Shown: one piece after another, positions 532 through 57,221 of the stretch
Layout: each line of letters starts with the position of its first letter
Position numbering within the stretch: the first letter of the stretch is position 1
DNA from: Candidatus Saccharimonadales bacterium
Lineage (GTDB): Bacteria > Patescibacteriota > Saccharimonadia > Saccharimonadales > EFPC-124
Direction of reading: 5' to 3'
Length of the DNA stretch: 64,000 nt
NCBI GenBank assembly: GCA_035457485.1
Contig: DATIBO010000006.1
Span: 498,659 to 562,658, forward strand
The notes under the pieces: generated by a model
The model's input: the letters and a program-made list of their open reading frames with translations, nothing else
Databases searched by the model: none
What the model was told of the DNA's origin: nothing
Translations under genes and position numbers: made by a program

Positions 532-547
532 TAATAATTGCGGTATG

Positions 548-572
548 GCGGAGCTCTCGATGAGAGCTCCGC
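548..572 (-). terminator. GC-rich hairpin terminator of cassette 1 (no T-tract)
   Basis: GCGGAGCTCT / AGAGCTCCGC form a 10-bp perfect stem with a 5-nt loop, about 30 nt after the stop of the last peptide ORF. Confidence 0.5.
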
Positions 573-603
573 GTGTTGCTAGAGGTCGAACTGAGCTTCC
601 GAA

Positions 604-738
604 TCAGCTGAAGGAGCGGATGATCAGCAGGCCGCCAACCACGATCAGGACTGCCAGACCCATGACGAGCAGTAGGGGCACTGTTCGGATCCAGTCACGT
701 GGGGTCAGCTTCTTTGACCTGGATTCCTTGCTTGCCAC
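604..738 (-). CDS. small membrane peptide, 44 aa (third ORF of cassette 1, GTG start)
   Basis: Hand translation: (M)ASKESRSKKLTPRDWIRTVPLLLVMGLAVLIVVGGLLIIRSFS*. It is below the 60-aa track cutoff and starts 1 nt after the upstream stop. Third positions are G/C-rich and there is one TM helix. Confidence 0.45.
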   Translation of the reverse strand: MASKESRSKKLTPRDWIRTVPLLLVMGLAVLIVVGGLLIIRSFS

Positions 739-739
739 G

Positions 740-901
740 TCACCACCCACCCAAGGTGTAGCCCCAGGCGATGATGCCGATGCTCAGCAGCAGGCCGCAG
801 ACGCCACACCACTGGAACGGGTACGTCTGGAGCGAGCCCCAGAGCCAGCTCAGCAGCCGACGCGGGTAGTACAGCACGATCTCGAGACCGGGCATAGTCA
901 T
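740..901 (-). CDS. small membrane peptide, 53 aa (second ORF of cassette 1)
   Basis: MTMPGLEIVLYYPRRLLSWLWGSLQTYPFQWCGVCGLLLSIGIIAWGYTLGGW*. ATGA overlaps the upstream stop at 898-901. It is the same frame as track ORF 740-925, and the alternative start is ATG 895. Confidence 0.5.
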   Translation of the reverse strand: MTMPGLEIVLYYPRRLLSWLWGSLQTYPFQWCGVCGLLLSIGIIAWGYTLGGW

Positions 902-1014
902 GCTCCCATCAGGTTGTGGATCCATCCACCTAAGCTGGCGGCGATCCCTTCGGTCAGGGCGACCGAAATCAACATTGTGATGACGGTCGAGCGGAATGTG
1001 CGGAAGGCCCGCAT
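898..1014 (-). CDS. small hydrophobic peptide, 38 aa (first ORF of cassette 1)
   Basis: MRAFRTFRSTVITMLISVALTEGIAASLGGWIHNLMGA*. The ATG lies 6 nt after GAGGAGGTG, and third positions are mostly G/C. Confidence 0.45.
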   Translation of the reverse strand: MRAFRTFRSTVITMLISVALTEGIAASLGGWIHNLMGA

Positions 1015-1165
1015 CTGCGCCACCTCCTCGTAGCTAGGCTACTATACCACTTTTAGGTCACATGGTCTATAGTTGAATATGATCAAATTTTAACCAACTT
1101 TAAACATCTGTCGGACGGCACCATGCATACCTTAACAGGTTAGCGTTTTTAATGTATTACAGATG

Positions 1166-1174
1166 TGGTAACAT
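1166..1174 (+). promoter_or_regulatory. extended -10 box (TGGTAACAT) for a probably leaderless uvrB mRNA
   Basis: A TGn+TAACAT box ends 6 nt before ATG 1181, with no SD in between. Confidence 0.35.
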
Positions 1175-1180
1175 TGTTTT

Positions 1181-3148
1181 ATGACTGGCTCATTTAAGTT
1201 AGTTTCTAAATATCAACCGACAGGCGACCAGCCAACTGCTATCGCTCAGCTTGTTGATGGTTTAAAAAACGGCAAAAAAGAGCAAACTCTGCTTGGTGTA
1301 ACAGGCAGTGGTAAAACGTTCACGATGGCCAATATTGTGGCGCAGCGCCAAGTTCCAACCTTGGTGCTTTGCCATAACAAAACTTTAGCTGCGCAGCTCT
1401 ATAGCGAGTTTAAGCAGTTCTTTCCCGAGGCCGAAGTTCATTATTTTGTAAGTTACTTTGATTACTATCAGCCTGAGGCGTACATGCCTTCGAGCGATGT
1501 TTATATAGAGAAAGACAGTAAGATAAACGAAGAAATCGACCGGTTGCGACACGCCGCAACCAGCGCGCTTTTAACTCGCCGCGATGTTTTGATCGTTGCG
1601 AGCGTGAGTTGTATTTACGGTATTGGATCTGTTGAAGATTATGGTCAGATGGCTATTACTGTCAAAAAGGGAGAACAACGTCGTCAGGATAAACTTTTGC
1701 GCTGGTTAAGCGATATTCAATATACGCGCAATGATATTGATTTTCATCGCAGTACTTTTAGGGTGCGCGGCGATGTTTTAGACGTGTTTCCGGCTGGCAG
1801 TGAGACTGCGTATCGAATTGAATTTTTCGGTGACGAAGTTGACAGGATTACGAATATCGATCCGCTGACAGGGGAAATTATAAAACAGGTTGACCAAGTT
1901 ACAATCTTTCCGGGAAGTCACTATGTGACGCCACGCGAAAAGCTTAACGTTGCGATCGAAAAAATCCGCAAAGAATCCGAAGAACGGGTTAAACTTTTTG
2001 AAAGTCAAGGTAAGCTTCTTGAGGCGCAACGACTACAGCAACGCACTAAGTTCGACCTTGAAATGCTGGAGGAGACAGGGTTTGTAAAAGGCATCGAAAA
2101 CTATAGCCGTTATTTAACAAATCGCGCGCCAGGCGAACAACCTGCTACTTTGATGGATTACTTTCCTGACGATTTTTTGATGTTTGTGGATGAATCGCAC
2201 ATGACTTTGCCGCAGGTTCGTGGCATGTACAATGGTGACCGCGCCCGCAAAGAAGTTTTAGTGGATTACGGCTTTAGGTTGCCTAGTGCGCTCGATAACC
2301 GGCCGCTAACTTTTACGGAGTTTGAGCGCCACGTTAACCAGGTAGTTTACGTTAGTGCAACGCCTGCCGAGTACGAACTAGGTCGCAGTGGCGAACCGGC
2401 ACAACAAATTATTCGCCCAACCGGATTGCTCGACCCACCAATACAAATCCGCAAAATCGATGGCCAGATCGACGACTTGATTGGCGAAATTAAAGACACT
2501 ATAGCAAAAAATCAACGTGTTTTAGTTACAACTTTAACTAAGCGTATGGCCGAAGATCTAACCGAATATCTTAGCGATCTGAACATCAAAGCCACCTACG
2601 TACATTCAGATGTTGATACTTTAGAACGTAGTGATATTCTGCGAGATTTGCGACTTGGAGTTTACGATGTTTTGGTGGGAATTAACTTGTTGCGCGAAGG
2701 TCTGGATTTGCCAGAGGTTAGTTTGGTTGCAATCATGGACGCCGACAAGGAGGGCTTTTTGCGTTCGGCGCCAGCACTTATCCAAACTGTTGGCCGTGCC
2801 GCTAGACACGTCGATGGTCGGGTTATTATGTACGCCGATGTCATTACAAAAAGTATTCAGCAAACCCTAGACGAAACCACTCGTCGCCGCAAAATTCAAG
2901 ATGCCTACAATAAAAAACACGGAATTACTCCGACGGGAGTTAGTAAAGAAATAGAAGAAGGTTTGCGTGCGGTTATTCCTAAAGAAGCCCAAATGGTTAA
3001 GCGTGATATTAACAAGATTCCCAAAGAGGAATATGCTCGAGTCATCAAGGATCTTACGGCTGAAATGGATTTAGCCGCTGCGAATTTGCAGTTTGAAACG
3101 GCTGCCGAATTACGTGATTTGATAAATGAACTTAAATCAAAACAGTAG
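1181..3148 (+). CDS. uvrB: excinuclease ABC subunit B
   Basis: 655 aa with Walker [11 protein letters not shown], helicase motifs and a C-terminal UVR domain ([11 protein letters not shown]). Confidence 0.95.
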
Positions 3149-3248
3149 TTTAGATCGTTGATATTGTAAACTCTTCTGCTGGTCGTAAAATGTGTCCATC
3201 TCACCAAGAGATGCGTTTTAGAGGCTACGATCACCGAGGAGGTGTTTC

Positions 3249-3377
3249 ATGAAGATCATCGCCAAGATTGTGTCGCGCTTCGGTGCGCTGCTCCGGGCCG
3301 ATTGCACCTGCGCATGCTGGCAGTGTACTGTTCAGTCCTCGCACTGTCGCAACAGGTCCAACGGCTGCGTCTACTGA
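3249..3377 (+). CDS. 42-aa cysteine-rich peptide
   Basis: Hand translation: MKIIAKIVSRFGALLRADCTCACWQCTVQSSHCRNRSNGCVY*. It has 7 Cys in the last 24 residues. The ATG lies 4 nt after GAGGAGGTG, and 34/42 third positions are G/C. It is below the track cutoff. Confidence 0.5.
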   Translation: MKIIAKIVSRFGALLRADCTCACWQCTVQSSHCRNRSNGCVY

Positions 3378-3390
3378 TCCTCTATCTGTC

Positions 3391-3428
3391 TGGTGGCAGT
3401 CTCGTGTATGTTCACGGGGCTGCCACCA
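3391..3428 (+). terminator. hairpin terminator of cassette 2 (no T-tract)
   Basis: TGGTGGCAG (3391-3399) pairs with CTGCCACCA (3420-3428), with inner CGTG/CACG pairs. Confidence 0.45.
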
Positions 3429-3469
3429 CGCCTACCAACTTTTAATAATCGAAATTTTATTTTATAATA

Positions 3470-3790
3470 TAGTTGCAACATCGAGACGGGAGCAGTTCGT
3501 GGTTTACTTGAAGGGCAAACCGGGAGTGGATTTCGCGGTTTGTGTCTGTGGCTGCAGGGTTTGTTTGCCGCCGATTTTTGGGCGTCAGCCCGAGACACAT
3601 TGCGCCGAAGCAACTACGGGATGTATGTTTATCGTTCCGAAAGAGGAGGACTCGCAAGAGGCTTACATTCTGCGTCGCACGATCACAGCTCCAACTCGCT
3701 AAGCGATCCGCCCTAGGGTCGAGTCAGGGTTGCGCTTTGCTTAAGGCTTAGTGCGCTCAGGCGGTTGTAGGCGCCGCTATATAAAATGCC
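3470..3790 (+). ncRNA. candidate structured non-coding RNA, family unassigned
   Basis: About 320 nt have no credible ORF and are GC-elevated. A TATAAT at 3463-3468 precedes the block. Stems include CAAACCG/CGGTTTG (3516-3542), GTGTCT..GGCTG/CAGCC..AGACAC (3542-3598) and a CTC-GCAA-GAG tetraloop. gatC has its own promoter downstream, so this is not simply its leader. Confidence 0.2.
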
Positions 3791-12973: not shown

Positions 12974-13046
12974 TAAATTTGACTATTGCGCTCAAAACTG
13001 TTAGTTTAATCATTGCCCAAAGAAGTACTCACGAAGGAGGTGGCCA

Positions 13047-13700
13047 ATGGCCGCCAGAATCCTGCGGATGCAGGGCGTTCACTCCGACGACCGTCGGACG
13101 ATCTCGGAGGTCGACGTACCGACCGAGACCGGCTTCGGCATCGGTCGCATGACGCTGCTCGAGATCAACGCTCCGGTCGACGGTAAGCCGGTGACGCTGG
13201 GAGACCACTACCACATGGAGGACCGTGAGCGGTTCCTGCTGACGCGTGGTCGTGGTGTTCTGACCAGCTGCCACGTGAGCCCGGTCGGCCAGCTGGTCGG
13301 CCCGCTCAAGGTGGACTCGGTTCAGGCCGGCGACGTGATCGTGATTGAGCCCTTCGTGGCCCACACGTTCGTGTTCGACGGGCCGGCCACACTGGTCTGC
13401 GTCTCGTCGATGACCTTCGACCCGAAGGACACTGAGGTCCGCAAGCTGATGCTCCCGCCGGCCAGTGCTCGCATGATGCACTACCTGCGCGAGCTCGCGC
13501 TCACCGAGCGCATCACGCCGTGGGACGTGGCCTACTACAGCTTCCACGGGGAGCTGCAGGTCACGGTCAACGCGGCGGGCACGCTGGTGGTCAGCGACAA
13601 CAGCGGCGAGGGAGCCGTGACGCTCAACTTCAACGAGGGCAACCTCGAGGAAGTTCTGGCTAAGGTCGCCGAGATCGTGCGGGTCCCGTCTGTGAACTGA
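13047..13700 (+). CDS. cupin-fold protein with C-terminal extension
   Basis: 217 aa. The cupin motifs are GDHYHMEDRERFLLTRG and AGDVIVIEPFVAHTF. GC3 is very high. Confidence 0.6.
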   Translation: MAARILRMQGVHSDDRRTISEVDVPTETGFGIGRMTLLEINAPVDGKPVTLGDHYHMEDRERFLLTRGRGVLTSCHVSPVGQLVGPLKVDSVQAGDVIVIEPFVAHTFVFDGPATLVCVSSMTFDPKDTEVRKLMLPPASARMMHYLRELALTERITPWDVAYYSFHGELQVTVNAAGTLVVSDNSGEGAVTLNFNEGNLEEVLAKVAEIVRVPSVN

Positions 13701-13719
13701 ACGACAACTTCATAGGGCA

Positions 13720-13746
13720 GGCCTGGTACTCACGCAGTACCGGGCC
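13720..13746 (+). terminator. hairpin terminator of cassette 3 (no T-tract)
   Basis: GGCCTGGTACT-cacgc-AGTACCGGGCC forms an 11-bp stem with one G.T pair. Confidence 0.45.
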
Positions 13747-13757
13747 TCGCTCAGAGC

Positions 13758-16912: not shown

Positions 16913-16920
16913 AATGAAAC

Positions 16921-16944
16921 GCCCCGCTCGTAAATGAGCGGGGC
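16921..16944. terminator. bidirectional hairpin between pilB and cassette 4
   Basis: GCCCCGCTC-gtaaat-GAGCGGGGC forms a 9-bp stem. It is flanked by TTT on the plus strand and TTT-containing sequence on the minus strand. Confidence 0.5.
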
Positions 16945-17225
16945 TTTGGGCCCGGGTGAGGGCTCGTGTTTCAGGACTTGTGGTGGTGGCGGGTGGTGTA
17001 GATGTGGACCGTCACGATGCCGATGCTGACGCAGATGATCGCGCTGATCACCCGCACGACACCATCCAGCGACGGGAACTCCGTCTTGACCTGACCACCG
17101 GCCCACGTCACGAGGACGATGAGGGCCAGATTCGCCAGCCCGTAGCCGGCGATCGTCAGGATCTTGCTGCCACGCTTGGGCGTGTTCGCCATGATGTCTC
17201 CGATGTTCGAACGGGACAATTCCTT
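16945..17225 (-). other. GC-rich foreign-looking cassette 4 (2-TM protein)
   Basis: Line 17041-17100 has 39/60 G+C, flanked by AT-rich native DNA. Confidence 0.6.
16971..17192 (-). CDS. small two-TM membrane protein (73 aa)
   Basis: MANTPKRGSKILTIAGYGLANLALIVLVTWAGG...VISAIICVSIGIVTVHIYTTRHHHKS. The ATG lies 4 nt after GGAGAC; the track start 17219 is an upstream in-frame alternative. Confidence 0.5.
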   Translation of the reverse strand: MANTPKRGSKILTIAGYGLANLALIVLVTWAGGQVKTEFPSLDGVVRVISAIICVSIGIVTVHIYTTRHHHKS

Positions 17226-17236
17226 GAAACCATATA

Positions 17237-17265
17237 TTTATAACATAAAATGTAAATCAAGTCAA
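17237..17265 (-). promoter_or_regulatory. promoter TTGACT-17-TATAAA reading into cassette 4
   Basis: The -35 box is at 17260-17265 (inside the last codons of the upstream gene) and the -10 box at 17237-17242, on the minus strand. Confidence 0.4.
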
Positions 17266-27529: not shown

Positions 27530-27543
27530 GTTTATTGTTGTTC

Positions 27544-27576
27544 GGGGGCTGTAGCGTCATCTCTGCTACAGCCCCC
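27544..27576. terminator. 12-bp GC hairpin between convergent genes (cassette 5 end)
   Basis: GGGGGCTGTAGC-gtcatctct-GCTACAGCCCCC. Confidence 0.5.
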
Positions 27577-27598
27577 GTGCACCTTGTGGGCGGTCAGC

Positions 27599-28522: not shown

Positions 28523-28556
28523 TGGGTCCACCTCACTTTCGCTTGGGTGCTTGCAA

Positions 28557-28585
28557 ATTATATAATAAGTTAAACACATTGCCAA
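28557..28585 (-). promoter_or_regulatory. promoter TTGGCA-17-TATAAT reading into cassette 5
   Basis: The -35 box is at 28580-28585 and the -10 box at 28557-28562 on the minus strand, in AT-rich DNA shared with the divergent radA promoter region. Confidence 0.4.
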
Positions 28586-38425: not shown

Positions 38426-38509
38426 GCGCGAGTGGTGGAATGGTAGACACGCTGGTCTTAGGAACCAGTGCCGTAAGGCGTGAAGGTTCAAGTCCTTTCT
38501 CGCGCACCA
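38426..38509 (+). tRNA. tRNA-Leu (anticodon UAG), CCA encoded
   Basis: Hand-folded: acceptor GCGCGAG/CTCGCGC, D stem GTG/CAC, anticodon stem CTGGT/ACCAG with loop CTTAGGA, long variable arm GCC-gtaa-GGC, and T arm GAAGG-TTCAAGT-CCTTT. Confidence 0.9.
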
Positions 38510-38555: not shown

Positions 38556-38593
38556 GTTAGTAACTGTGGCTTTCTCGCTTGAATTGCCTTACA

Positions 38594-38622
38594 TCGACCA
38601 AACCTGTTTTATATGGTATAAT
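38594..38622 (+). promoter_or_regulatory. promoter TCGACC-17-(TGG)TATAAT reading into cassette 6
   Basis: An extended -10 box TGGTATAAT at 38614-38622 and a -35 box at 38594-38599, in AT-rich DNA just upstream of the GC-rich block. Confidence 0.45.
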
Positions 38623-38670
38623 TTGGATCCAGACGAAAGTTGACCCTTTTAGTTTTTAGGAGCTGGTTAC

Positions 38671-39504
38671 GTGTTCGACCGTAAAATTCAGCGCATTGCG
38701 CTGGGCGACGATGTTGTCGTTGCGGTGTCGCGTCGTGACGAGTCCGAGCCCGCTGCCTACAGCATGCGACGTACCGGACCCGACGCGCACCACGCGGCCC
38801 GCAACATCGCCGACTTCGCTGGTCGCGTTGGTTTCGACGTGAACCGGCTGGTCATGCCCCGCAGGTGGCCGCATCTTGGTCGAGTCATGGTCGTGAGTAA
38901 TGACGACCTGGTTCCGGACCCGGTGAGCGGCCTCAACCCCAATTTGCCGAAGGCCGACAAGCCGGGTTTCGAGCATTCGTGCGATGGACTGATCACGATG
39001 GCTCACGGTCTCTACCTGGGCGCCCAGGGTGCTGACTGCCCAATGCTCTACCTGTATGACTCGGTTCTCGGGATTATCGGCGCCATTCACTGTGGGTGGA
39101 AGCCGGTGGCACAGCACATTGTGACCACGGCCGTACGACAGTTCGAGTGGCTGGGTTCCAACCCGATGAACATCCGAGCGTTCGTATCGGCCGGCGCCGG
39201 CGATAACGTCTACGAGTTCGCCATCGACGACGCCTCGCGCCTGCTGCTTGAAGCGCAGGGCCGCGTCGCCGACTTCGAGGCACTCATGGCGCCGCATGGA
39301 ACCAAGCCCGGCACGAAGGTCTTGCGGCTCAATGCTCTGGTCGTCCACGACCTGACAAGAGCTGGAGTTCCGTTGTCGAACATCCTGTGCGACTGGCGGA
39401 GCTGCATCGAAGATCCGACGCTCCACAGCTATCGCCGTGACGGCGGTCCAGACATGGCCACGTCGCTGCACGGACTGGGCATCGGCGTGATCTTTCTGAA
39501 CTGA
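38671..39504 (+). CDS. pgeF: YfiH/PgeF-family (DUF152, Cu-oxidase_4) protein
   Basis: 277 aa. It aligns by eye with E. coli YfiH: PHLGRVMVV (QVHG region), GADCPMLYLYD...GAIHCGWKP (ADC.P / H.GW.G) and C...LHSYRRDG (FSYRRD). The His-Cys-His triad is retained. Confidence 0.75.
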   Translation: MFDRKIQRIALGDDVVVAVSRRDESEPAAYSMRRTGPDAHHAARNIADFAGRVGFDVNRLVMPRRWPHLGRVMVVSNDDLVPDPVSGLNPNLPKADKPGFEHSCDGLITMAHGLYLGAQGADCPMLYLYDSVLGIIGAIHCGWKPVAQHIVTTAVRQFEWLGSNPMNIRAFVSAGAGDNVYEFAIDDASRLLLEAQGRVADFEALMAPHGTKPGTKVLRLNALVVHDLTRAGVPLSNILCDWRSCIEDPTLHSYRRDGGPDMATSLHGLGIGVIFLN

Positions 39505-39527
39505 ACAACTTCACATCGTCGTCAAGA

Positions 39528-39557
39528 GGCCGGGGCGCAGTAAAAGGTGCCCCGGCC
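39528..39557 (+). terminator. hairpin terminator of cassette 6 (no T-tract)
   Basis: GGCCGGGGC-gcagtaaaaggt-GCCCCGGCC. Confidence 0.45.
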
Positions 39558-39753
39558 ACAATCCATGAAATCATTTCGGGATAAGTATTAATCTTTCTCG
39601 CCGCCTGCAAAAGTTATCTCAACGCCGCCTGTGGTGCGCTATGAATTAGAGTTTGATTTTAGAACGAGTAGTACTGTTATAATATTGTATGACTAAGTTA
39701 GTAGGTATATAGTAGCCGGCGTGAATATCTGAACTAAGTAGTTAAGGATTGCT

Positions 39754-44426: not shown

Positions 44427-47400
44427 ATGGAGGGGTCTGGGGTATTTATGCGTGAAGAAAAAATTAAACTAAGTAAGTTAAAATCTTATTTTTATAAAGC
44501 GTCGTTTTTTTGTATGGCGCTAATGTCGGTTTTATCGCTTGTGCCGACAGATGCGATAAAAGCAATCGCTCCTCCACATACAAACATCGAAGGTAGCGCT
44601 GAACCTATTGACGCCTCAAACATAGCCCCAATAAAAGAGACCGATAAAACTGAGGTCCCTGCGGCTGATTACGGTAAAGTTCCATTTGCCGACGGAATGG
44701 GTGCGCAAAACGCGCCCGAGCAAAATAAGAAAGATCGCAAAGAGCTGTTTGAGGACGAAACAAAACGTACAGCTTTTTCGAACGAATATGTAAATAGCGA
44801 CGGAACTCGCACGATAAAAAGCTCGCCGGTTGATGCAATTAACTACAAAGAGGGTGATACTTGGCGCAAAATCGAGCATGTTGTAAACGATGATGAGGCG
44901 TACGTCCCAAGTAAAAACCTTGATGATTCCTCTTTTTGGGATTTTTTGCCCTGGACAAATAAGTCTAAAGCCGTAGACGCACAGGCGGGTCGAACAAAAG
45001 CTAAGCTAAGGCCGTTTGCCGAAGGTATTAGTTACGAAATGGGCGGTAAAACTTTTACACTTGAGCCGGTTGATGCGCGCAATGTTAAACCTAGAATTTC
45101 TACTGTTGCCGACGGGCGTGTCACGCTTATAACCTATGTGGATGCCTGGCCGGGCGTGGATGTTCTATATGAGTTGCACGGTGAATCGGTGAAAGAGTCA
45201 ATAATTATTAAAAACGCAAATGCGCGTACAGATTATGAGTTTAAGGTATCAGGCGCGACGCTTTTCGAGCATCCAACTATAAAAGGCGCTTTGGCGATTG
45301 AGGGGCTAGATCCAGAATTTTACATGATCTCTCCGCTTAGTGTGAATGTAAACAAGCAAGGTTTAACTACCGAGCAAGTTGCGGCGCAAACAACAGATGG
45401 TTCAAAAATTAAGGTTACCCTTGACCAAAAGTGGTTTTCAAGTCAGCCACAACAAAGTTTTCCAATAGTTATAGACCCCACTGTTTCTGTTAACTCTGCC
45501 GAGTATGGCTTTTATTCCTATAAATCCGATGGCTATTCTTGCACGGATGTACAATGCGGTGGTCCGAATGTTGGAGCGCTGTATGACAGTAGTTGGAAGA
45601 ATTGGCGCAGCCTAGTTAGGTTGCCATTTGAGCAGCTACGCGGAAAGCAATTGTTGTTTGCCGAGCTTGGAATGGACATGGCCCAGAGACCATATTGGAC
45701 AGGCACAACCGACGCCAAGACCATTTATACAACTTACGCTCAGTGTATCGGCTACCAATGCGCAAGTAACATTTGGCACAGTAGCGCGAGCATGGCTACA
45801 GGTGTTTGGATGAACATTACAAACACTATTCAAGGGATGATCGATGCTAATCAATGGGGTGGTTGGTTGATATTGTGGGGCGAAGAAGGCAACTCGACTT
45901 CTTACAAACAGCTAGAATATAGCACAATGGAGATTCGGCTCACCTATACAACCCCAGCACCTATAGCTCGGCCGGTTGAACCTTCAAATCAACAGGTAGT
46001 TGTAACAACCCAGCCAAACTTAAAAGTTGGCACAGTAGCCGATGCCGAGGGTGAGCAAGTTGAGTATAACTTTAAGCTTGCAACTGGGGCTGACGCTGAA
46101 TCTGGCACGGTTGCTGCTTCGGGTTGGTCGCCGTCTAATTTATGGACGGTTCCCGACGGTGTTTTACAAGATGGCGTGACGTATTATTGGCATACTTACA
46201 CTAAAGATGGGAACGTACAGACAAATCCGGATTGGGTTAGCTCGTTTAAAGTGGATATGAGAACCGGCAAAGACAGCACACAGGCTTACGATACGGTTGG
46301 TCCACTTAGTGTAGATATCGCTACCGGTAATTTAACTACTTCTAACGCTAGTCATTCTGTAAGTGCTTTAGGGGGATCGCTTGGCGTAGGAATGTCATAC
46401 AACTCGCCAATGCAATCTCGCCAAGGTTTGTACGGCGAATATTGGAACAACACAAACTTTAGTGGCAACCCTGTTTTGGGGCGTGTTGACCCTGAGGTTG
46501 ATTTTAAATGGGGTAACGGTTCGCCGGCTACAGGCGCGGTTAATGCAGATAACTTTGCTGTTCGTTGGACTGGCTATTTTGTAGCGCCAAGCACGGGTGA
46601 CTTTTACATTGGGGCAGATGTCGATGATTCTTATAACATTTATTTAAATAACCAACTTCATCATAGCCGCAGTGGCGCCGGTAGCGAATTTGGCGCAACG
46701 CCAGTTAGCTTAACAGAAGGCCAGATCATACCGATTAAGGTAGAAATGGTCGAAAATTACGGCTTAGCGGTTATGAGTTTGCGAATGAAAAAGGCCGGCG
46801 GTGAACCGCAAATTATTCCTAGCTCAATGTTGCAGACCGGCGTTAGACAAGTGGGTGCGCCGCATGGCTTGATTGGGCGTTACTACTATGATTCTGGTAA
46901 CCATAACTTTCCAACTAATCCAAACGAAGCGTTTTTGGTTCGAAACGACAGTTTAATATCTTTTAACTGGGGTTCTGGTTCTCCAGTTCCTAGCGGTCCA
47001 GCCAACGATTTCTTAGTTAGATGGACGGGTTATGTGACAGTTCCGGAAACAGGTGTATACCAATTTGGTTCAAGGGCTGACGATGGTGTTAGGATAAAAC
47101 TTGGAATTGGGTCGGGAGGATCCGATCAGACAGTTCATGATAAGTGGATTGACTCGAGTGCAGTTGATAGTTGGGGTGGCGATGTTAGCTTGACTGCCGG
47201 ACAGGTAATTCCGATAACAGTCGAGTATTACGAATACGGCGGCGATGCTGTTATGGAGCTAAAAGTTCGTCGCGCTGCAGGTGTAGGTGAACAAACTTTG
47301 CCATCAACATGGTTAATTCCTAGTACTATGGCTTTGCCAGCCGGCTGGAGCTTAAGCGTAGATCCTGATGGCGGTTTAAGCTACGACCGAATGAAATTGG

Positions 47401-50400
47401 TTGGCAACAACGTGGTTTTGTACGACTCAACAGGTAGCACTCATGAATACACGTGGACGGGCAGTGGCTACAAACCGCCACTTAACGAAGACGGGTACTT
47501 AGTTCGCAATCAAGACGGCACTTACACAATGCAAGATGTAGATGGCCGAACTTACGTGTTTAACGCAGACGGAACTTTAAAAGAAACAGTCACGCCAACA
47601 GATGACCGCAAACCTGCGGCCCTTAAGTACGAATACACCGGAACGCCTTCGCGTTTAACAAAAATCATCGATGGAGTGACGAACGATAGGTTTACCAGCC
47701 TACATTACAGCGGCGATAGTGAGTGTAGTGGCGCACCGAGCGGATTCGACGCGCAAGCTCCTGCGGGCATGCTTTGTGCTGTAAAAACCAGCGACAATGC
47801 GGTTACAAAAATCTGGTATAAACAAAATAGGTTGGCCAGAATCGTACGCCCGGGCGGCGAGACGACTGACTACGGTTACGACACATTTGGCCGAATTGTA
47901 TCTGTCCGTGACCCGCTAGCAAGTGATGCTTTGGCGGCCGGCGTCCGAAGTGACAACGACGAGCTTTTAACTCAGGTAGCTTACGATTCAATTGGTCGCG
48001 TTAGTGCGCTTACTCAGCCAGCGGCCACAGCCGGAGCGAACCGATTGCAAAAAACTTACGATTACGGCTCTTCGGCAAACGCAATTTGGTATGACCCAAC
48101 AATTGTTACTGGCGAGACTCCAGCTGGCAATCCGGCATTAGTCAATTTTGGGCCAGGTAAGCTGGCAATGTTTGCGCGCTTTGGCGCCGACGAACTTAAG
48201 TATCGTTTTTACGAAAACGGTGCCTGGGGTGATTGGCTTTCGCTCGGAACGTGTATGCGTAGCGATCCTGCGGCAGCAAGTTGGACAGCAAACAGAATAG
48301 ATGTGTTTATTAGGGGTTGTGACGACCAGCTCTACACTCGCGTTTACATCGATGGCACCTGGAACGGCTTTGTAGCCTTGGGTAGTAACCAAATATCCTC
48401 GTCGCCATCTGCTACAACTTGGGGCAATGCACGTATTGATGTTGTGGCACGCGCGACCGACAACCGACTAATGCACCGAAACCTTTCAGCTACCGGCTGG
48501 TCAAACTTTAGCTACCTCGATGGCTGTTTGTCGGATGCGCCAAGCGTTTCTACCTGGGGCTACGATCGCCTGAATGTTTTTGCTAATGGCTGCGACAATC
48601 CGTCTACGGTCTATACCCGCAATTACTCTGCTGGCTGGCAAAACTTTCAGCAGACAACCGACCAAAAAATAACTTCGGCACCACAATCTGTTAGCGCTTT
48701 AGATAAAAAAATTCATATGGCAGCTAAAGGCCCGGCCAACGAGCTACGGTACTTAAACGGTTATGAATACAACGCAAACGATCTCAAGTGGTCGTGGCAA
48801 ACGCTGCAGCCATGTATGCAAGGATCGCCTGCAATAACAATGGACGGCACAACGGTAGCTATAGTTTATAAAGGCTGTGACGGCAAAATGTACCAAACGC
48901 GCCGCGCCCAACAGGGAACAACCAAAGTACACGTAACCGGTGATTCTGAACCAAACGGCTACAACACTAAGGTTCAATACGACAACCTGTTTAGAACAAT
49001 CAAAAACTACGACAAAACTGGCAATGTAACCGTTAGTGAATGGGACTCAGTTAAAGATTTACTACTAAGCACTACTGGCGCAACTGGCCAAAAATCTACC
49101 ACAATTTACGACGTCGATGACCGCGCAACCGATAGCTACGGCGCAGCTCCCAAAGAATGGTTTGGTAGCGATCGCAAACCACTAGCGGCAAACGTAAACC
49201 AGGTGCCACATGTAGAAACAAAATTCGACGAAGGTATTTGGGGCCCGCAAGTCACCTGGTACAACTTTAAGCAAGGTAATCCAAGCACAACCGGTAGTTT
49301 TGTCGGCGCACCAAAACTGCATACAACAGGTTTTGGTGACGCAGCCGGTAGCCACGTTTGGGCAAAAAACATGGCAACTGCACCGATCACCGCAGACGCA
49401 GGTATGGATGGAATTGGCTTTTCGGCCACAGGTAAGCTACGCGTTACACAAACCGGCACGTACACAATTACCAGCAATCACGACGACGCCGCTCGCGTTT
49501 GGGTAGATGACAAATTAGTTTTCGACCGTTGGAGTAGGCGAACCGAAACTCAAGATCAAGTTTCGGGCCAAGTGTCCCTGCAAGCTGGCAAAGTTTACCG
49601 TTTACGCTACGACTACGCTAACATTGGCGCAGCTGGTTACATGGACTTGCAGCTAAACGGCCCAGGCCGCAGTGCCCCATTAAACCACTGGACCAACTAC
49701 TTAGCACCAGGCTACAACCTAGCCACAACCAACAAAGTTTACGACGCAACATTAGGCGATATCGAGACTAAAACCAACTACGGCAGCGAACCACAATATG
49801 GTTTAGTACAAAGCGCAACGCTAGACCCAACCGGATTAAACTACTCTAGCGGTAGCACATTCGAAGCCCCAGGCACCGGCTTTTTGCGTCAAACCAGCAA
49901 AACCCTGCCAGGCGGAGGCACAACCACCTACACCTACAACAGCGCAACCGAAACCGCCGACAACCCTTGCACCGGCCCAACCGAAGCCATACATCAAGCT
50001 GGGTTTATAAAACAAAAAATCGAAGCCGATCCAGATGGCGCCGGCACCCAAACCGCACGAACGCAAAGCACAGTTTATGATGCGGCTGGGCGAGCGGTGG
50101 CAGTCCGGTTTAACAACGATCCGTGGACATGTACTACTTTCGATACCCGCGGCAGAGTAACCCAAGCCACTATTCCAACGATAAACGGACGTGCTGGTAG
50201 AACCACCACAACAACCTATAGCTACACGGGCAATCCATTTAAAACACAAACCGTTGATTCTGTCGCCGGCACCACTGAATCCGAAATTGACCTTCTTGGC
50301 CGAGCTGTTTCTAGCATCGACGTATTTGGTAACGTTTCTACCTTGGCTTACGACAACCTTGGCCGAGTAACCACTAAAACCTCACCAATAGGAACCGAAG

Positions 50401-52199
50401 GCTTTAGCTACGATACTTACGGTCGCCCTACTGAATATCTTCTCAATAGTGTTAAATATGCGACGACAACCTACGACCAGTACTCCCGAGTTCAAGACAT
50501 AACCTACGACCAAGCCAAAGACGCCTCCAATAACAAACTAAAACTAGAACAGCTCAAACGCGACTCCCTCGACCGCAACACCGGTGCGGTCTTCAGATTC
50601 AGCAACGGCCTTGCCTTCGACGAATCTGTAACTCGTTCACAATCTGGCCTAGTAACGTCGTATTCTGACACCTTCGACGCCAAAACCGCTGGTGCAGCCT
50701 ACACCTACGACAAAGCCGGCCGCCTACTCGAAGCCACAGTAGATACAACAAAATACACCTACGGTTACGCGGCCCCAAGTTCTAGCGTTTGCAACCAAGC
50801 TAGTGCTAACCTAAACGCCAACAAAAATAGCAACCGCACCACCTACACCGTAACCAACACTCAGACCAGCCAAGTAGTTCAATCCCAATCCTACTGCTAC
50901 GACCAATCCGACCGCCTAATCTCCACCTCCGACTCACAAATTGGCACCCCAACCTACGACGACCACGGCAACACTGTCTCCCTCGCCGGCAACAGCAATC
51001 CAATTACCTTCACGTACGACGCTAGCGACCAAAACACTGCCATCGGGCAAGGCCAGAACAAGGTAGAATACCTAAAAACTGCTGTCGGCTCAGTTCTCCG
51101 CAAAAAAGAATACGAAAATAATGTTCTTGTACGTTCCTACCGCAACCTCTCCGGTGGTTCCGTAATGCAGAGCTGTTCCCTAACCAACGACTCCGACTGC
51201 CAAACCACCGACACATACCTAAGTCTCCCCGGCGGCCTAACCCTAACCCTCTCACCAACCAACCCAGACACAAACAAACAAATCGTATATAGCATAAAGA
51301 ACTTCCACGGAGACAGTGCAATCACTGCTAGTTCAACTGGACTTCCAACATCTTCCGTCTTCCTCTACGAACCCTTCGGCCAAGCTACTTCTTCTACAAC
51401 ATTCAGTACTAACTCCAATCCTCAAAACAGCTCTAACCAAACACTAGGTTGGGCTGCAAGCCCAACCAGAAAACAAGAATCCTTGTTCTCTATACCAATA
51501 GTACAAATGGGAGCTAGAGTATACCTACCTACACTAGGACGCTTCCTCCAAGTAGACCCAATCGAAGGAGGAACAGCCAATTCGTATGTGTATGCGGGGG
51601 ATCCGGTGAATGCGGATGACTATAGTGGGATGGCGATACCGCAGAAGGGTAATGCTAAGTGGTTAAATAATTATCCCCACTATCCTCTTGTCTACCAGCA
51701 ACCTATTATCTATCCGTTAATTAACGTCAGACCAAAACCTGCCATGCCGCAAGATGCCGGTGGACTAGTCGCTGGCGCAATATCCTTGTCTGGCGATGTT
51801 TCTAGCGGATTTAAACGCCAATCTTCCGTATATGGCCAACAATTACAACGGGGCTCGAGTATAGCAGGTCGGAATTTACGGTCCGTTAGTCAGCTGGCTA
51901 AAAACCCCGCTATTCGTGCGGTTGGAAAATACGCAGGACCGATAGGGGCTAGTGTAGAGTTTGCCGGAAACTACTTCGCTGGTGACAGTCTAGGGCGCAA
52001 TGTATTAAAGACTGGCGGGGGAGTGGCCTTAGGGGGAGCGGGTGTATTCGTTGGAGGTGTGGCTTGCGGGACTGTATCCTTAGGTACTGGCGGAATTGCT
52101 GCGGTTACATGCCCTGTTCTGGTGGGTGGATTAGGGGCTGCTGGTTCAGTGGCTGGAAATAAGTTTGGAGAGGGTCTTGCTGATGTGTTTGGATGGTAA
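44427..52199 (+). CDS. giant secreted RHS/YD-repeat polymorphic toxin (2590 aa) with three PA14 domains and a lectin-like beta-propeller
   Basis: N-terminal signal/anchor (FFCMALMSVLSLVP). There are more than 12 YD repeats (YGYDTFGRIV, AYDNLGRVT, TYDKAGRLLE and others). The core end is RVYLPTLGRFLQVDPIEGGTANSYVYAGDPVNADDYSGM, followed by a variable C-terminal tip. ATG 44448 is an alternative start. Confidence 0.9.
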   Translation: MEGSGVFMREEKIKLSKLKSYFYKASFFCMALMSVLSLVPTDAIKAIAPPHTNIEGSAEPIDASNIAPIKETDKTEVPAADYGKVPFADGMGAQNAPEQNKKDRKELFEDETKRTAFSNEYVNSDGTRTIKSSPVDAINYKEGDTWRKIEHVVNDDEAYVPSKNLDDSSFWDFLPWTNKSKAVDAQAGRTKAKLRPFAEGISYEMGGKTFTLEPVDARNVKPRISTVADGRVTLITYVDAWPGVDVLYELHGESVKESIIIKNANARTDYEFKVSGATLFEHPTIKGALAIEGLDPEFYMISPLSVNVNKQGLTTEQVAAQTTDGSKIKVTLDQKWFSSQPQQSFPIVIDPTVSVNSAEYGFYSYKSDGYSCTDVQCGGPNVGALYDSSWKNWRSLVRLPFEQLRGKQLLFAELGMDMAQRPYWTGTTDAKTIYTTYAQCIGYQCASNIWHSSASMATGVWMNITNTIQGMIDANQWGGWLILWGEEGNSTSYKQLEYSTMEIRLTYTTPAPIARPVEPSNQQVVVTTQPNLKVGTVADAEGEQVEYNFKLATGADAESGTVAASGWSPSNLWTVPDGVLQDGVTYYWHTYTKDGNVQTNPDWVSSFKVDMRTGKDSTQAYDTVGPLSVDIATGNLTTSNASHSVSALGGSLGVGMSYNSPMQSRQGLYGEYWNNTNFSGNPVLGRVDPEVDFKWGNGSPATGAVNADNFAVRWTGYFVAPSTGDFYIGADVDDSYNIYLNNQLHHSRSGAGSEFGATPVSLTEGQIIPIKVEMVENYGLAVMSLRMKKAGGEPQIIPSSMLQTGVRQVGAPHGLIGRYYYDSGNHNFPTNPNEAFLVRNDSLISFNWGSGSPVPSGPANDFLVRWTGYVTVPETGVYQFGSRADDGVRIKLGIGSGGSDQTVHDKWIDSSAVDSWGGDVSLTAGQVIPITVEYYEYGGDAVMELKVRRAAGVGEQTLPSTWLIPSTMALPAGWSLSVDPDGGLSYDRMKLVGNNVVLYDSTGSTHEYTWTGSGYKPPLNEDGYLVRNQDGTYTMQDVDGRTYVFNADGTLKETVTPTDDRKPAALKYEYTGTPSRLTKIIDGVTNDRFTSLHYSGDSECSGAPSGFDAQAPAGMLCAVKTSDNAVTKIWYKQNRLARIVRPGGETTDYGYDTFGRIVSVRDPLASDALAAGVRSDNDELLTQVAYDSIGRVSALTQPAATAGANRLQKTYDYGSSANAIWYDPTIVTGETPAGNPALVNFGPGKLAMFARFGADELKYRFYENGAWGDWLSLGTCMRSDPAAASWTANRIDVFIRGCDDQLYTRVYIDGTWNGFVALGSNQISSSPSATTWGNARIDVVARATDNRLMHRNLSATGWSNFSYLDGCLSDAPSVSTWGYDRLNVFANGCDNPSTVYTRNYSAGWQNFQQTTDQKITSAPQSVSALDKKIHMAAKGPANELRYLNGYEYNANDLKWSWQTLQPCMQGSPAITMDGTTVAIVYKGCDGKMYQTRRAQQGTTKVHVTGDSEPNGYNTKVQYDNLFRTIKNYDKTGNVTVSEWDSVKDLLLSTTGATGQKSTTIYDVDDRATDSYGAAPKEWFGSDRKPLAANVNQVPHVETKFDEGIWGPQVTWYNFKQGNPSTTGSFVGAPKLHTTGFGDAAGSHVWAKNMATAPITADAGMDGIGFSATGKLRVTQTGTYTITSNHDDAARVWVDDKLVFDRWSRRTETQDQVSGQVSLQAGKVYRLRYDYANIGAAGYMDLQLNGPGRSAPLNHWTNYLAPGYNLATTNKVYDATLGDIETKTNYGSEPQYGLVQSATLDPTGLNYSSGSTFEAPGTGFLRQTSKTLPGGGTTTYTYNSATETADNPCTGPTEAIHQAGFIKQKIEADPDGAGTQTARTQSTVYDAAGRAVAVRFNNDPWTCTTFDTRGRVTQATIPTINGRAGRTTTTTYSYTGNPFKTQTVDSVAGTTESEIDLLGRAVSSIDVFGNVSTLAYDNLGRVTTKTSPIGTEGFSYDTYGRPTEYLLNSVKYATTTYDQYSRVQDITYDQAKDASNNKLKLEQLKRDSLDRNTGAVFRFSNGLAFDESVTRSQSGLVTSYSDTFDAKTAGAAYTYDKAGRLLEATVDTTKYTYGYAAPSSSVCNQASANLNANKNSNRTTYTVTNTQTSQVVQSQSYCYDQSDRLISTSDSQIGTPTYDDHGNTVSLAGNSNPITFTYDASDQNTAIGQGQNKVEYLKTAVGSVLRKKEYENNVLVRSYRNLSGGSVMQSCSLTNDSDCQTTDTYLSLPGGLTLTLSPTNPDTNKQIVYSIKNFHGDSAITASSTGLPTSSVFLYEPFGQATSSTTFSTNSNPQNSSNQTLGWAASPTRKQESLFSIPIVQMGARVYLPTLGRFLQVDPIEGGTANSYVYAGDPVNADDYSGMAIPQKGNAKWLNNYPHYPLVYQQPIIYPLINVRPKPAMPQDAGGLVAGAISLSGDVSSGFKRQSSVYGQQLQRGSSIAGRNLRSVSQLAKNPAIRAVGKYAGPIGASVEFAGNYFAGDSLGRNVLKTGGGVALGGAGVFVGGVACGTVSLGTGGIAAVTCPVLVGGLGAAGSVAGNKFGEGLADVFGW
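46425..46838 (+). other. PA14-like domain 1 within the RHS protein
   Basis: GLYGEYWNNTNFSGNPV...DFKWGNGSP...FAVRWTGYFVAPSTGDFYIGADVDDSYNIYLNN. Confidence 0.7.
46862..47320 (+). other. PA14-like domain 2 within the RHS protein
   Basis: GLIGRYYYDSGNHNF...SFNWGSGSP...FLVRWTGYVTVPETGVYQFGSRADDGVRIKLG. Confidence 0.7.
48132..48915 (+). other. about six ~48-aa repeats resembling tectonin/PLL/fucose-lectin beta-propeller blades, embedded in the YD region
   Basis: Repeating pattern P(A/S)xxxW..(N/D)R(I/L)(D/N)VF(A/I)(R/N)G.D..L..R......W..(F/W)..LG. Confidence 0.55.
49241..49670 (+). other. PA14-like domain 3 within the RHS protein
   Basis: VTWYNFKQGNP...GFSATGKLRVTQTGTYTITSNHDDAARVWVDDKLVFDRW...GKVYRLRYDY. 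Confidence 0.6.
51339..51384 (+). repeat. 46-nt direct repeat, copy 1 (inside the RHS core 3' region)
   Basis: GGACTTCCAACATCTTCCGTCTTCCTCTACGAACCCTTCGGCCAAG is identical to 53169-53214. Confidence 0.9.
51633..52199 (+). other. RHS C-terminal variable tip: glycine-zipper, predicted membrane-inserting toxin domain
   Basis: It begins after DDYSGM. The tail GGGVALGGAGVFVGGVACGTVSLGTGGIAAVTCPVLVGGLGAAGSVAG has repeated GxxxG spacing. Confidence 0.45.
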
Positions 52200-54129: not shown

Positions 54130-54145
54130 GGTTTAAGGGGGGCTT

Positions 54146-55719: not shown

Positions 55720-55976
55720 TCGTACGAATTCCCGCCAATGGTTTAGAGGTGGAGGGTGAGTTGATTATCCCAAAAAACGCAAACGGCCTGGTAATTTTTG
55801 CGCACGGCAGCGGCAGTAGCAGGCACAGCCCGCGTAATATGCTTGTAGCTCAAGAGTTGCGTCAAAACAATCTGGGGACTCTTTTGGTGGACTTACTCTC
55901 GGTGGATGAAGATAGTGACTATCAAAATCGATTTAATATTGCGCTTTTAGCTGAACGACGAACAGTCTGTAGCTAG
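55716..55976 (+). pseudogene. truncated alpha/beta (dienelactone) hydrolase-like ORF (86 aa)
   Basis: Only the N-terminal part of the fold is present (VIFAHGSGSSRHSPRN). The frame ends inside the clpP operator/promoter. Confidence 0.4.
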
Positions 55977-55999
55977 CACTCTTGACCCTCGACTGCCAA
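55973..55999 (+). promoter_or_regulatory. degenerate CIRCE-like element CTAGCACTC-N9-GACTGCCAA upstream of clpP
   Basis: The left half is identical to the clpC element and the right half matches at 6/9. The geometry relative to the -35/-10 boxes is identical. Confidence 0.35.
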
Positions 56000-56010
56000 C
56001 TTTGTATAGT
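55982..56010 (+). promoter_or_regulatory. clpP promoter TTGACC-17-TATAGT (leaderless transcript)
   Basis: The -10 box ends 6 nt before ATG 56017, with no SD. Confidence 0.45.
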
Positions 56011-56016
56011 TAAAGC

Positions 56017-56610
56017 ATGAACTCTCAAAGCTACCTCGTTCCAACAGTAATAGAGCAAACTCACATGGGTGAGCGCGCTTACGACATTTATAGCCGCCTT
56101 CTTAAAGAGCGCATCATCTTTTTAGGTGACGAAGTTAACGAGCATACAGCCAATCTGGTTATTGCCCAGCTACTACATCTAGCTTACGAGGACCCTAAAA
56201 AGGACATTTACCTATACATCAACAGCCCAGGTGGATCGGTTAGTGACGGCCTAGGGATTTACGACACTATGCAGTTTATTAAACCCGATGTTCAGACCAT
56301 TGGCATTGGAATGCAAGCAAGTATGGGTGCGTTTTTATTGAGCAGCGGCACAAAAGGTAAGCGATTTATGCTACCGCATGCGCGTGCCATGATTCACCAG
56401 CCTCGAGGTGGAACACAAGGTGTTATGACAGACATGGAAATCAGTTTACGTGAAGGTTTACGAACTAAAGAGTTGCTCGCGACTATTATTGCTAAAAACA
56501 CGGGTCAAAAACTTGCAAAAGTTAAAGATGACATGGAACGTGATCTGTGGATGACCGCAACAGAGGCTGTTAAGTACGGATTAGTTGACGGGATTTTAGA
56601 TAAGGCCTAG
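56017..56610 (+). CDS. clpP: ATP-dependent Clp protease proteolytic subunit
   Basis: The Ser-His-Asp triad context ([16 protein letters not shown]) and the full length are conserved. Confidence 0.9.
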
Positions 56611-56616
56611 GCGCTT

Positions 56617-56644
56617 GGGGCACAGCGATCTCTCGCCATGCCCC
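56617..56644 (-). terminator. imperfect hairpin after the cassette 7 ORF
   Basis: GGGGCA...TGCCCC outer stem with an inner GCGA/TCGC stem. Confidence 0.3.
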
Positions 56645-56648
56645 GTCA

Positions 56649-57161
56649 TCAGCGCAGGAGGGTGGTGTCGTCAGGTACGACGAACGGTTGTGGGTTTAGC
56701 AGAATGATTCTGCCGACAGTCAGGGTGTTGCGGCTGAGCTCACCCTTGAGTTGGTCGTCCAGCTGGAATAGCTTGGTTAAGCGTTCAGCCTCTGTGCCGT
56801 GAGTGGATGAAGCTTGTCGGTGGCCGGAGTTGAATATTCTCCACGACGTATTCATTTGTTCACGCCACAGTTGTTGAATTCTGTGGACTCTGGGTCCGTC
56901 GAACACTGGCTGGTCTTCCAGATCCCTTACTTCTAGCAGCGCATCTTTATATGTTTTACTTTGCGCTACGGTCAGAACGCGGAAGTAGGCCGACCTAACC
57001 CTGTGAACTTTCGGCCAGCTCAGTCTTGCGTCGGCTACGTCAAGGTCGGCTAGGATTCGGGCCAGCTCCAGGATCGAGTTGCGCATCGCGGCTCGATAGT
57101 ATGGAAAATCAGCCAAAGCCGGCATTCCATTCCAGGCCGCTAGTAATTGCTTGCTTCTCAC
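56649..57161 (-). CDS. hypothetical helical protein (170 aa)
   Basis: (M)RSKQLLAAWNGMPALADFPYYRAAMRNSILELARILADL.... GTG 57161 lies 8 nt after AGGAGG; track start 57170 lies inside the SD. No family recognised. Confidence 0.5.
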   Translation of the reverse strand: MRSKQLLAAWNGMPALADFPYYRAAMRNSILELARILADLDVADARLSWPKVHRVRSAYFRVLTVAQSKTYKDALLEVRDLEDQPVFDGPRVHRIQQLWREQMNTSWRIFNSGHRQASSTHGTEAERLTKLFQLDDQLKGELSRNTLTVGRIILLNPQPFVVPDDTTLLR

Positions 57162-57221
57162 GCTAATCACCTCCTAAATGCGTGATGTGACGACATATTA
57201 CCACAAAATACCCAAAAACCC

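Follow-up and report, generated by a model that had tools for sequence, protein, structure and literature searches.

Phage morons are said to be promoter–gene–terminator units lying between phage genes, as reportedly set out by Juhala, Hendrix and colleagues in 2000, and compositionally atypical transferred genes and their amelioration were reportedly treated by Lawrence and Ochman in 1997. Among bacteria, many hot spots of gene transfer contain no mobile genetic elements (MGEs); recombination is raised in the core genes that flank them, and they occur more often in naturally transformable bacteria (Oliveira et al., 2017; PMC5635113). Saccharibacteria are naturally transformable via ComEC, a cassette has been inserted between convergent open reading frames (ORFs) of Saccharibacteria in a ComEC-dependent manner, and cultivated members grow on Actinobacteria (Wang et al., 2023; PMC10633639). 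Single-gene transfers in Patescibacteria are mostly intra-phylum (PMC12455944). Here, we describe seven short blocks (B1–B7) of high guanine–cytosine (GC) content in a stretch of 64,000 nucleotides (nt) from contig DATIBO010000006.1 of a soil-type Candidatus Saccharimonadales metagenome-assembled genome (MAG). This whole stretch is referred to as the window, and coordinates are window positions. The blocks are probably independently acquired, non-self-mobile genomic islets of a known kind, gained via transformation and host recombination.

As in MGE-free hot spots, the accessory genes occupy spacers between core genes and have no integrase or transposase, the cargo of a spacer varies among relatives, and the host lineage is transformable; the units here differ in being single-gene, in having their own putative promoter and stem-loop and in being far GC-richer than the host (PMC5635113). 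The original prediction, made on the window alone, had taken repeated insertion without mobility genes for an undescribed mechanism; published work contradicts this (PMC5635113; PMC10633639). In Southlakia epibionticum a promoter–ORF–terminator cassette without mobility genes was likewise placed in an intergenic site, but that engineered insertion was supplied with ~0.5–1 kb of flanking homology, of which a natural first entry would have none (Wang et al., 2023; PMC10633639). Like phage morons, the blocks are self-contained putative transcription units whose composition is atypical and which sit precisely between adjacent genes, and the earlier description of them as moron-like was accurate as regards their apparent promoter–gene–terminator layout. 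Unlike morons, they have cellular neighbours (uvrB, gatC, dnaE, a PilB-like ATPase gene, radA, clpP and rpoB) rather than a prophage, and eight of the nine products have no PHROG or phage-genome match. Integron cassettes also consist of a single ORF followed by an imperfect palindrome, and unrelated ORFan cargo is common in them. Unlike integron attC sites (R''/L''–L'/R' boxes), the stems here are short, nearly perfect and without a GTTRRRY core; unlike integron cassettes, the blocks have putative promoters of their own and are scattered rather than arrayed, and no intI was present in the window ORFs scanned.

The source organism had been guessed to be of Saccharibacteria type, and its placement in Saccharimonadales (TM7) confirms this. 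Identical NCBI proteins with VLA77_ tags, on one 889,392-bp contig, exist for the products of B3, B6 and B7. Block limits were set by an unsupervised change-point search, which returned 540–1030, 3221–3432, 13036–13757, 16920–17190, 27543–28536, ~38610–39560 and 56603–57180; all seven composition jumps of the original prediction were recovered, displaced by ~10–45 nt. Block GC is 0.55–0.65 compared with 0.28–0.45 in the flanks, with B2 and B7 the weakest. The window as a whole has a GC content of 46.3% (mean of 200-nt windows 0.463, standard deviation 0.056); thus, the compositional contrast that had been claimed is real, whereas the 'low-GC genome' in which it was placed is in fact of moderate GC. 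Together the blocks sum to ~4.1 kb, or 6.4% of the window. As predicted, all seven are confined to spacers between native genes, into which they are inserted exactly, with intact ORFs and the same genome on both sides. Logan contigs of SRR25158331 match the window at 100% identity over 12,654 and 7,241 bp, including the B3, B4 and B6 junctions, and judging from contig coordinates B1 to B5 should all lie on one Logan contig of 81.9 kb.

The difference extends from the DNA to the encoded proteins. GC content at third codon positions (GC3) is 0.76, 0.82 and 0.71 for the three ORFs of B1, 0.79 for B2, 0.88 for B3, 0.89 for B4, 0.83 for B5, 0.76 for B6 and 0.59 for B7, against 0.30–0.53 (typically about 0.40) for native ORFs, in agreement with the G/C-dominated third positions first reported. 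Composition differs at all three codon positions. The stop codon is TGA in all nine cassette ORFs versus seven of 45 native ORFs (Fisher p = 2e-6), and the ratio R/(K+R) is 0.70 in the cassette proteins versus 0.43 in native proteins; this preference for Arg over Lys means that the proteins themselves, and not silent sites alone, bear the high-GC signature. In most blocks the non-coding leader and the hairpin are GC-rich too.

A near-AGGAGG Shine–Dalgarno site is present in B1, B2, B3 and B7, and a weaker purine-rich site of the GAGG/GGAG type in B4, B5 and B6; the strong site that had been attributed to every block therefore stands for the first four and not for the other three. GTG starts do recur (three of the nine ORFs). 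A GC hairpin lies 10–35 nt past the stop codon in each of the seven blocks, with nearly perfect stems of 6–13 bp and loops of 3–16 nt. These hairpins had been said to lack a T-tract, which is true of six; that of B4 has A-/T-rich flanks and was called as a terminator. The native terminators at 18321, 30806 and 41368 have A/T tracts, as stated. Near-consensus −35/−10 or TG-extended −10 boxes are found, as predicted, in AT-rich DNA just outside the blocks; a consensus scan for promoters was near the shuffle expectation (32 found versus 23.6 expected). Since the scan only slightly exceeds the shuffles, the boxes are plausible, rather than proven, promoters. Transmembrane (TM)-like segments occur in five of the nine products, the number first given, and 'envelope-biased' is a fair description of the cargo. 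At the 3′ end, five of the seven cassettes face a convergent neighbour and therefore do not read through into native genes.

The native genes are housekeeping genes [uvrB, gatCAB, dnaE, a PilB-like ATPase gene, rplS, rnhB, nusA, clpC, radA, a class A penicillin-binding protein (PBP) gene, tyrS, recG, hisS, tig, clpP and rpoB], and their order is kept in Saccharibacteria in which GatB is only 55–70% identical. Fetched loci of relatives (L numbers) were used to examine the insertion sites; L003 is the closest species representative, and GatB of the nearest relative is ~70% identical. The empty sites for which the original prediction had proposed a search in relatives exist: the B1 site is a 52-bp spacer and the B3 site a 69-bp spacer in L003, and the B5 gap measures 21–126 bp in L095, L129 and L099, all three of which were read directly. 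The genes flanking B5, a 342-amino-acid (aa) gene and radA, are adjacent in seven of seven relatives in which both were found. In L008 the B2 site, the uvrB–gatC spacer, measures 49 bp and is empty; its counterpart in L003 and L004 encodes a 264-aa membrane protein, to which a GC-rich 198-aa gene is added in L004. The B4 spacer contains a different 90-aa ORF in L003 and measures 53 bp in L009, which is without the flanking gene. B6 lies at a synteny break. The presence of other cargo in the same spacers of relatives indicates that these spacers behave as hot spots. The earlier conclusion that the blocks are foreign acquisitions is thus borne out by composition, stop codons, amino acids and terminator style, all of which differ from the native background, and by the empty B1, B3 and B5 sites. 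Among the marks of a genomic islet, atypical composition and absence from the relatives' sites (B1, B3 and B5) were found, and a donor lineage was not.

Similar GC-rich genes occur in relatives, among them a PspA-like gene in L026 and a Macro-domain gene in L084, and the phenomenon is therefore not private to the window genome. Most of the GC-rich genes in relatives have a purine-rich ribosome-binding site, all (11/11) have a downstream GC stem-loop and seven of the 11 stop at TGA; where the upstream sequence was read, clear promoter-like boxes were seen for two L084 cassettes and for copies of the B6 family. By identical criteria, the 64-kb window contains six islands and 1.39 Mb of fetched loci contain 32 (~28 of them outside the window genome's own contigs), these loci being one conserved neighbourhood and not a genome-wide baseline. 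A 4.7-kb insert (L004 8770–13510) between dnaE and the gene preceding it carries a GC-rich gene for a secreted trypsin-like protease, two further, uncharacterized GC-rich genes and a gene for a DUF7010 membrane protein; no mobility gene was seen in it.

No integrase or transposase domain was detected in the window ORFs scanned, and flanking direct repeats were no better for cognate (4–9 nt) than for non-cognate pairs (4–8 nt), in keeping with the absence of integrase, transposase and long flanking repeats first noted. With neither terminal inverted repeats nor target-site duplications at the seven blocks, they do not qualify as insertion sequences, transposons or miniature inverted-repeat transposable elements. 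Nor does B6 qualify as a tRNA-targeting island: it has no integrase, and its sole flanking repeat is a 9-mer outside the tRNA. Imperfect repeats of 13–15 nt around B3, B4 and B5 were rejected as AT-rich sequence at stop codons and are not significant. An end motif common to all cassettes was sought and not found; the 3′ motif ATCGTCGTCAAAGAGG is restricted to the B6 family.

B1 (540–1035, minus strand) comprises three translationally coupled small membrane ORFs at 898–1014 (38 aa), 740–901 (53 aa) and 604–750 (48 aa), with TM-like segments and an ATGA start/stop overlap. Its Shine–Dalgarno site is GAGGAGGTG and its GC hairpin is at 548–572; immediately beyond the block, at ~1041–1069 on the same strand, is a TG-extended −10 box, TGGTATAGT. 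B2 (3221–3432, plus strand) has the same Shine–Dalgarno site, GAGGAGGTG, a 42-aa Cys-rich ORF (3249–3377, stop TGA), a hairpin at 3392–3427 and a promoter-like site at 3164–3191; a family search with its product gave no match. Some 350 nt between the B2 hairpin and gatC (3433–3785) have a GC content of 0.51–0.56 and no convincing ORF. An RNA gene in B2 or in 3433–3785 was rejected (no match in Rfam, folding equal to that of shuffles with z = −0.16, and no conservation), as was a remnant of the membrane-protein gene of L003 and L004 (no similarity). This segment may be a decayed cassette.

B3 (13025–13757, plus strand) has the Shine–Dalgarno site AAGGAGGTG, a 217-aa ORF (13047–13700, stop TGA) and a hairpin (13720–13746) that abuts the stop codon of a convergent CAP-domain gene. 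A weak cupin-like signal was obtained for the product; its AlphaFold2 model, of low confidence [predicted local distance difference test (pLDDT) 60], shows a β-rich N-terminal domain and was too poor for a fold search. B4 (16918–17225, minus strand) encodes a 73-aa product with two TM-like segments (16971–17192, stop TGA). The hairpin at 16921–16944, with its A/T-rich flanks, is common to B4 and the convergent T2SSE/PilB-like gene, and promoter-like boxes, TTGACT-N17-TATAAA, stand upstream at ~17229–17262. B5 (27543–28545, minus strand) contains a 307-aa ORF (27599–28522, stop TGA), a hairpin (27543–27577) beginning 14 nt past the stop codon of the upstream gene, and the promoter-like boxes TTGGCA-N17-TATAAT just outside (~28541–28569). 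The B5 protein is modelled with high confidence (pLDDT 92.7) as an N-terminal membrane anchor followed by an all-α body with a conserved PxxWNDLVARH motif; a search of the PDB with this model gave no fold match. B7 (56603–57180, minus strand), the weakest islet, has the Shine–Dalgarno site AGGAGGTGA, a 170-aa ORF (56649–57161, GTG start, TGA stop) and a hairpin (56617–56644) that starts 7 nt past the clpP stop codon. An exact look-up of the ClpP sequence for other strains with the B7 site returned no record, and a PADLOC scan for defence systems returned nothing.

Two native genes were also noted. A PIN-TRAM domain protein is encoded directly 3′ of radA (29968–30798), a position that is kept in relatives. 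A 2590-aa protein (44427–52199) contains three PA14 domains, GLEYA domains and an RHS repeat and looks like a giant adhesin or toxin; one end of a Logan contig falls inside its gene.

The original prediction named Actinobacteria or their phages as the donor. That an epibiotic Saccharibacterium recently took up the cassettes directly from its actinobacterial host or from actinophages is in our judgement unlikely, although several features fit this reading. TGA stops, GTG starts, ATGA overlaps and T-tract-free stem-loops, all of which occur here (GTG at some starts), form a pattern of high-GC bacteria and their phages, and ORFan small membrane proteins are typical of phage accessory genes. The GC3 of B3–B5 (0.83–0.89) implies a donor of ~62–65% GC, above the 38–58% of 40 sampled loci, and cultivated Saccharibacteria have Actinobacteria as their hosts (PMC10633639). 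Against this, no homologue was found in Actinobacteria or phages. B3 had one remote match among 5.8 billion clusters (36% identity over 61% of its length), the best non-self match of B5 among 1.84 billion exhaustively scored representatives was 29% identical, and B7 found only itself in a billions-scale protein search; all three are ORFans. A concatenated tblastn search of the nine products against 50,697 phage genomes (INPHARED) gave only a remote PgeF-family match for B6, at 28.8% identity to an unannotated faecal phage contig. PLSDB plasmids gave only remote PgeF-family matches for B6 (25–34%), PHROGs no significant match and IMG/VR none for the three products scanned. A phage origin and a plasmid origin were both rejected on these results. 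In the plasmid matches, B6 is as close to PgeF of Firmicutes as to that of Actinobacteria and Proteobacteria (25–34% identity alike), its placed close relatives are from Saccharimonadales, and its AT-rich leader belongs to the conserved module. The proposed actinobacterial or actinophage donor is therefore not upheld, and the protein searches suggested for finding it produced no donor homologue.

Source GC was instead estimated by regression of GatB GC3 on locus GC in 40 Saccharibacteria loci. The implied values are ~0.52 for B7, 0.59–0.61 for B1, B2 and B6 and 0.62–0.65 for B3–B5, compared with 0.38–0.58 in the sampled loci. On these values B6 and B7 could derive from GC-richer Saccharimonadales, and B3–B5 are beyond the sampled range. 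Because the nearest relatives of B6 are on Saccharimonadales contigs, transfer among Saccharimonadales of differing GC is the best-supported route for this block.

The B6 module (38603–39557, plus strand) consists of a TG-extended −10 box (38614–38622), a conserved AT-rich leader, a 277-aa ORF (38671–39504, GTG start, TGA stop), a conserved 3′ untranslated region (3′UTR) and a hairpin (39528–39557). A tRNA-Leu(tag) gene (38426–38509, plus strand) lies ~100 nt upstream of the promoter, and synteny with relatives stops here. The product matches Pfam PF02578 (Cu-oxidase_4) at 99 bits (cut-off 22.9; E = 3.6e-28), and its GADCP and IHCGWK motifs correspond in alignment to ADC and HAGWK in 6dzd, a YfiH structure, with the N-terminal His just beyond the aligned stretch. 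It scores below the equivalog cut-offs for TIGR00726 (PgeF; 67.7 versus 141 bits) and YfiH (20.4 versus 369). By sequence, B6 is thus classed as a divergent member of the PgeF/YfiH superfamily; the earlier assignment as a PgeF/YfiH-type peptidoglycan editor was right about the superfamily, and the editing function does not follow.

Relatives of B6 are 55–82% identical and are all on short metagenomic contigs; the genes flanking the L083 copy belong to 90%-identity clusters that carry the name Candidatus Saccharimonadales. On L083, L087, L084 and L169 the homologue stands out as an island of high GC against a lower-GC background. The window and L083/L087 are homologous from the TG-extended −10 box through the leader, ORF and 3′UTR to just past the hairpin. 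The leader and 3′UTR of the family (ATCGTCGTCAAAGAGG plus the stem) are still recognisable at 61–65% protein identity, and the 3′UTR is more conserved than the coding sequence. The module stands between tRNA-Leu and NUDIX genes in the window, between MMPL–MazG and tRNA-Val in L083 and L087, before Macro–hydrolase–NrdR in L084, between methyltransferase–hydrolase and an 88-aa GC-rich gene followed by tRNA-Val in L169, and before TlyA–CYTH in L088 and L170; a sixth neighbourhood is represented without DNA. As the downstream tRNA-Val is common to L083/L087 and L169, the truly independent contexts number four to six. The ratio of nonsynonymous to synonymous substitution rates (dN/dS) is 0.17–0.23, by which B6 is judged to be under purifying selection, and dS to the relatives placed in Saccharimonadales is 0.8–1.8. 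The claim of a recent import does not hold for B6: the whole module, AT-rich leader included, is shared at these distances with other contigs, of which the placed ones are from Saccharimonadales. Between L083 and L087, dS of B6 is 0.56, less than half of the value for the neighbouring MazG and MMPL genes (1.3–1.4), and dN is 2–16 times higher. The low dS suggests silent-site constraint or more recent exchange of the module. On L088 and L170 the neighbouring genes are as GC-rich as the B6 homologue (GC3 0.59–0.78), and this lineage could be donor-like for B6; a search for its placement found no named cluster members and no anchor among the fetched loci.

Several further observations concern the B6 site. 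In L169 the stretch from the B6 module to tRNA-Val contains an 88-aa gene of GC3 0.91 (2618–2884), a second GC-rich cassette stacked at this site, and in L084 the GC-rich Macro-domain gene is likewise 3′ of the B6 homologue. An exact 9-mer, CTTTCTCGC, is found at 38570–38578 and 39593–39601, ~35 nt outside each end of the window module; this is marginally above the non-cognate controls (9 versus a maximum of 8). Two Logan contigs of SRR25158331 overlap by ~28 nt and break at ~38264–38291, inside an RsmD-like methyltransferase gene (Pfam Cons_hypoth95) just upstream of tRNA-Leu, and the orientation of tRNA-Leu(tag) relative to this gene is reversed in relatives. The B6 site may contain a rearrangement or a strain-level branch. 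The 3′UTRs of B3 (13698–13720) and B6 (39502–39530) begin alike directly past TGA, in cassettes that are otherwise unrelated; B3 ACGACAACTTCATAG matches the B6-family consensus ACAACAACTACACAT at 11 of 15 positions.

It is more doubtful still that the cassettes belong to an as yet unrecognised mobile system, in which they would be moved in trans or from a GC-rich phage or plasmid reservoir. The corresponding proposal of a Saccharimonadales pool of promoter–ORF–hairpin mini-cassettes moving without a cis recombinase, for which B6 is the only case with evidence, is held to be equally improbable; under it, what keeps the coding sequence GC-rich would be a reservoir of high GC that has escaped notice, or else a bias affecting the genes. 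B6 has precise ends, from −10 box to hairpin, in its four to six neighbourhoods, adjoins tRNA genes in several of them, retains its 3′UTR at 61–65% amino-acid identity better than its coding sequence and has a dS below that of its neighbours and a persistently high GC3; several contigs break 130–150 nt upstream of the gene, and the alike start of the B3 and B6 3′UTRs would also suit such units. For the seven cassettes together, however, there is no shared terminal motif (that of B6 is confined to its family), no target-site duplication or inverted repeat and no recombinase in the window. Besides B6, no cargo recurs in ~3 Mb of related loci, and with tRNA-Val downstream in both L083/L087 and L169 some of the B6 contexts are maybe one rearranged locus.

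We regard it as very improbable that the genes are native and old, with their GC kept by mRNA selection or GC-biased gene conversion. The B6 family, GC-rich over dS ~1.8 and with a dS below that of its neighbours, would fit, but the B1, B3 and B5 sites are empty in every syntenic relative examined, B3, B5 and B7 are ORFans, and GC-richness in most blocks includes the leader and hairpin. Amino-acid usage and stop codons are shifted as well, and the highly expressed native genes rpoB, tig, clpP and rplS have a GC3 of only 0.30–0.43. A chimeric assembly or binning artefact is scarcely credible: although this is a short-read MAG and both assemblies apparently come from the same run, a second assembler gave 100% identity across the B3, B4 and B6 junctions, the inserts fall exactly in spacers with intact ORFs, matching signals and the same genome on either side, and the layout of the B6 module is repeated in other samples.

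The preferred reading, independent acquisition of non-self-mobile islets, would involve the following steps. The ORFs, one to three in each islet, would have evolved in a gene pool of 52–65% GC, each block forming a putative expression module with a σ70-type promoter in AT-rich DNA, a Shine–Dalgarno site, the ORFs and a GC stem-loop. DNA would enter by natural transformation through ComEC and a type IV pilus and be fixed by host recombination; illegitimate or homology-facilitated recombination would be required at first entry, and later spread within the lineage could proceed by double crossover in the flanking core genes. Survival would presumably be limited to insertions in short spacers, most of them in convergent orientation to the upstream gene, an arrangement that would keep them from reading into native genes. 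As expected of amelioration, the GC3 series from 0.89 to 0.59 reads as acquisitions of differing age or source: B3, B4 and B5 (0.83–0.89) would be the least ameliorated, B6 older, and B7 the oldest or from a moderate-GC donor. Unlike simple amelioration, the B6 family keeps a GC3 of 0.67–0.85 over dS ~1.8, longer than predicted.

Several points weigh against this reading. With GatB of the nearest relative only ~70% identical, an empty site alone cannot separate gain here from loss elsewhere; it is ORFan status and sharp composition that favour gain over loss. No donor sequence was found for any cassette, and foreign origin rests on composition and absence in relatives. The genes comEC, dprA and recA were not seen, being outside the 64-kb window. 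The lasting GC and low dS of B6 are not explained by simple decay after one old import, and a change of locus by B6 would take more than double crossover in the flanking core genes.

For the biology of these organisms, the islets imply that a reduced, host-dependent bacterium without visible mobile elements still gains genes, and at high local density. This cassette gain fits the natural competence demonstrated in Saccharibacteria. In an epibiont of Actinobacteria, an atypically high GC content is no ground for assuming host-derived DNA unless homology supports it. Were the B6-type module mobile, it would point to an uncharacterised transfer route, and mini-cassettes of this kind would be a distinct class of mobile accessory gene in reduced epibiont genomes. 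The cargo plausibly acts at the envelope or host interface, and its mostly ORFan products, five of nine with membrane segments, are candidate strain-specific envelope or host-interface factors.

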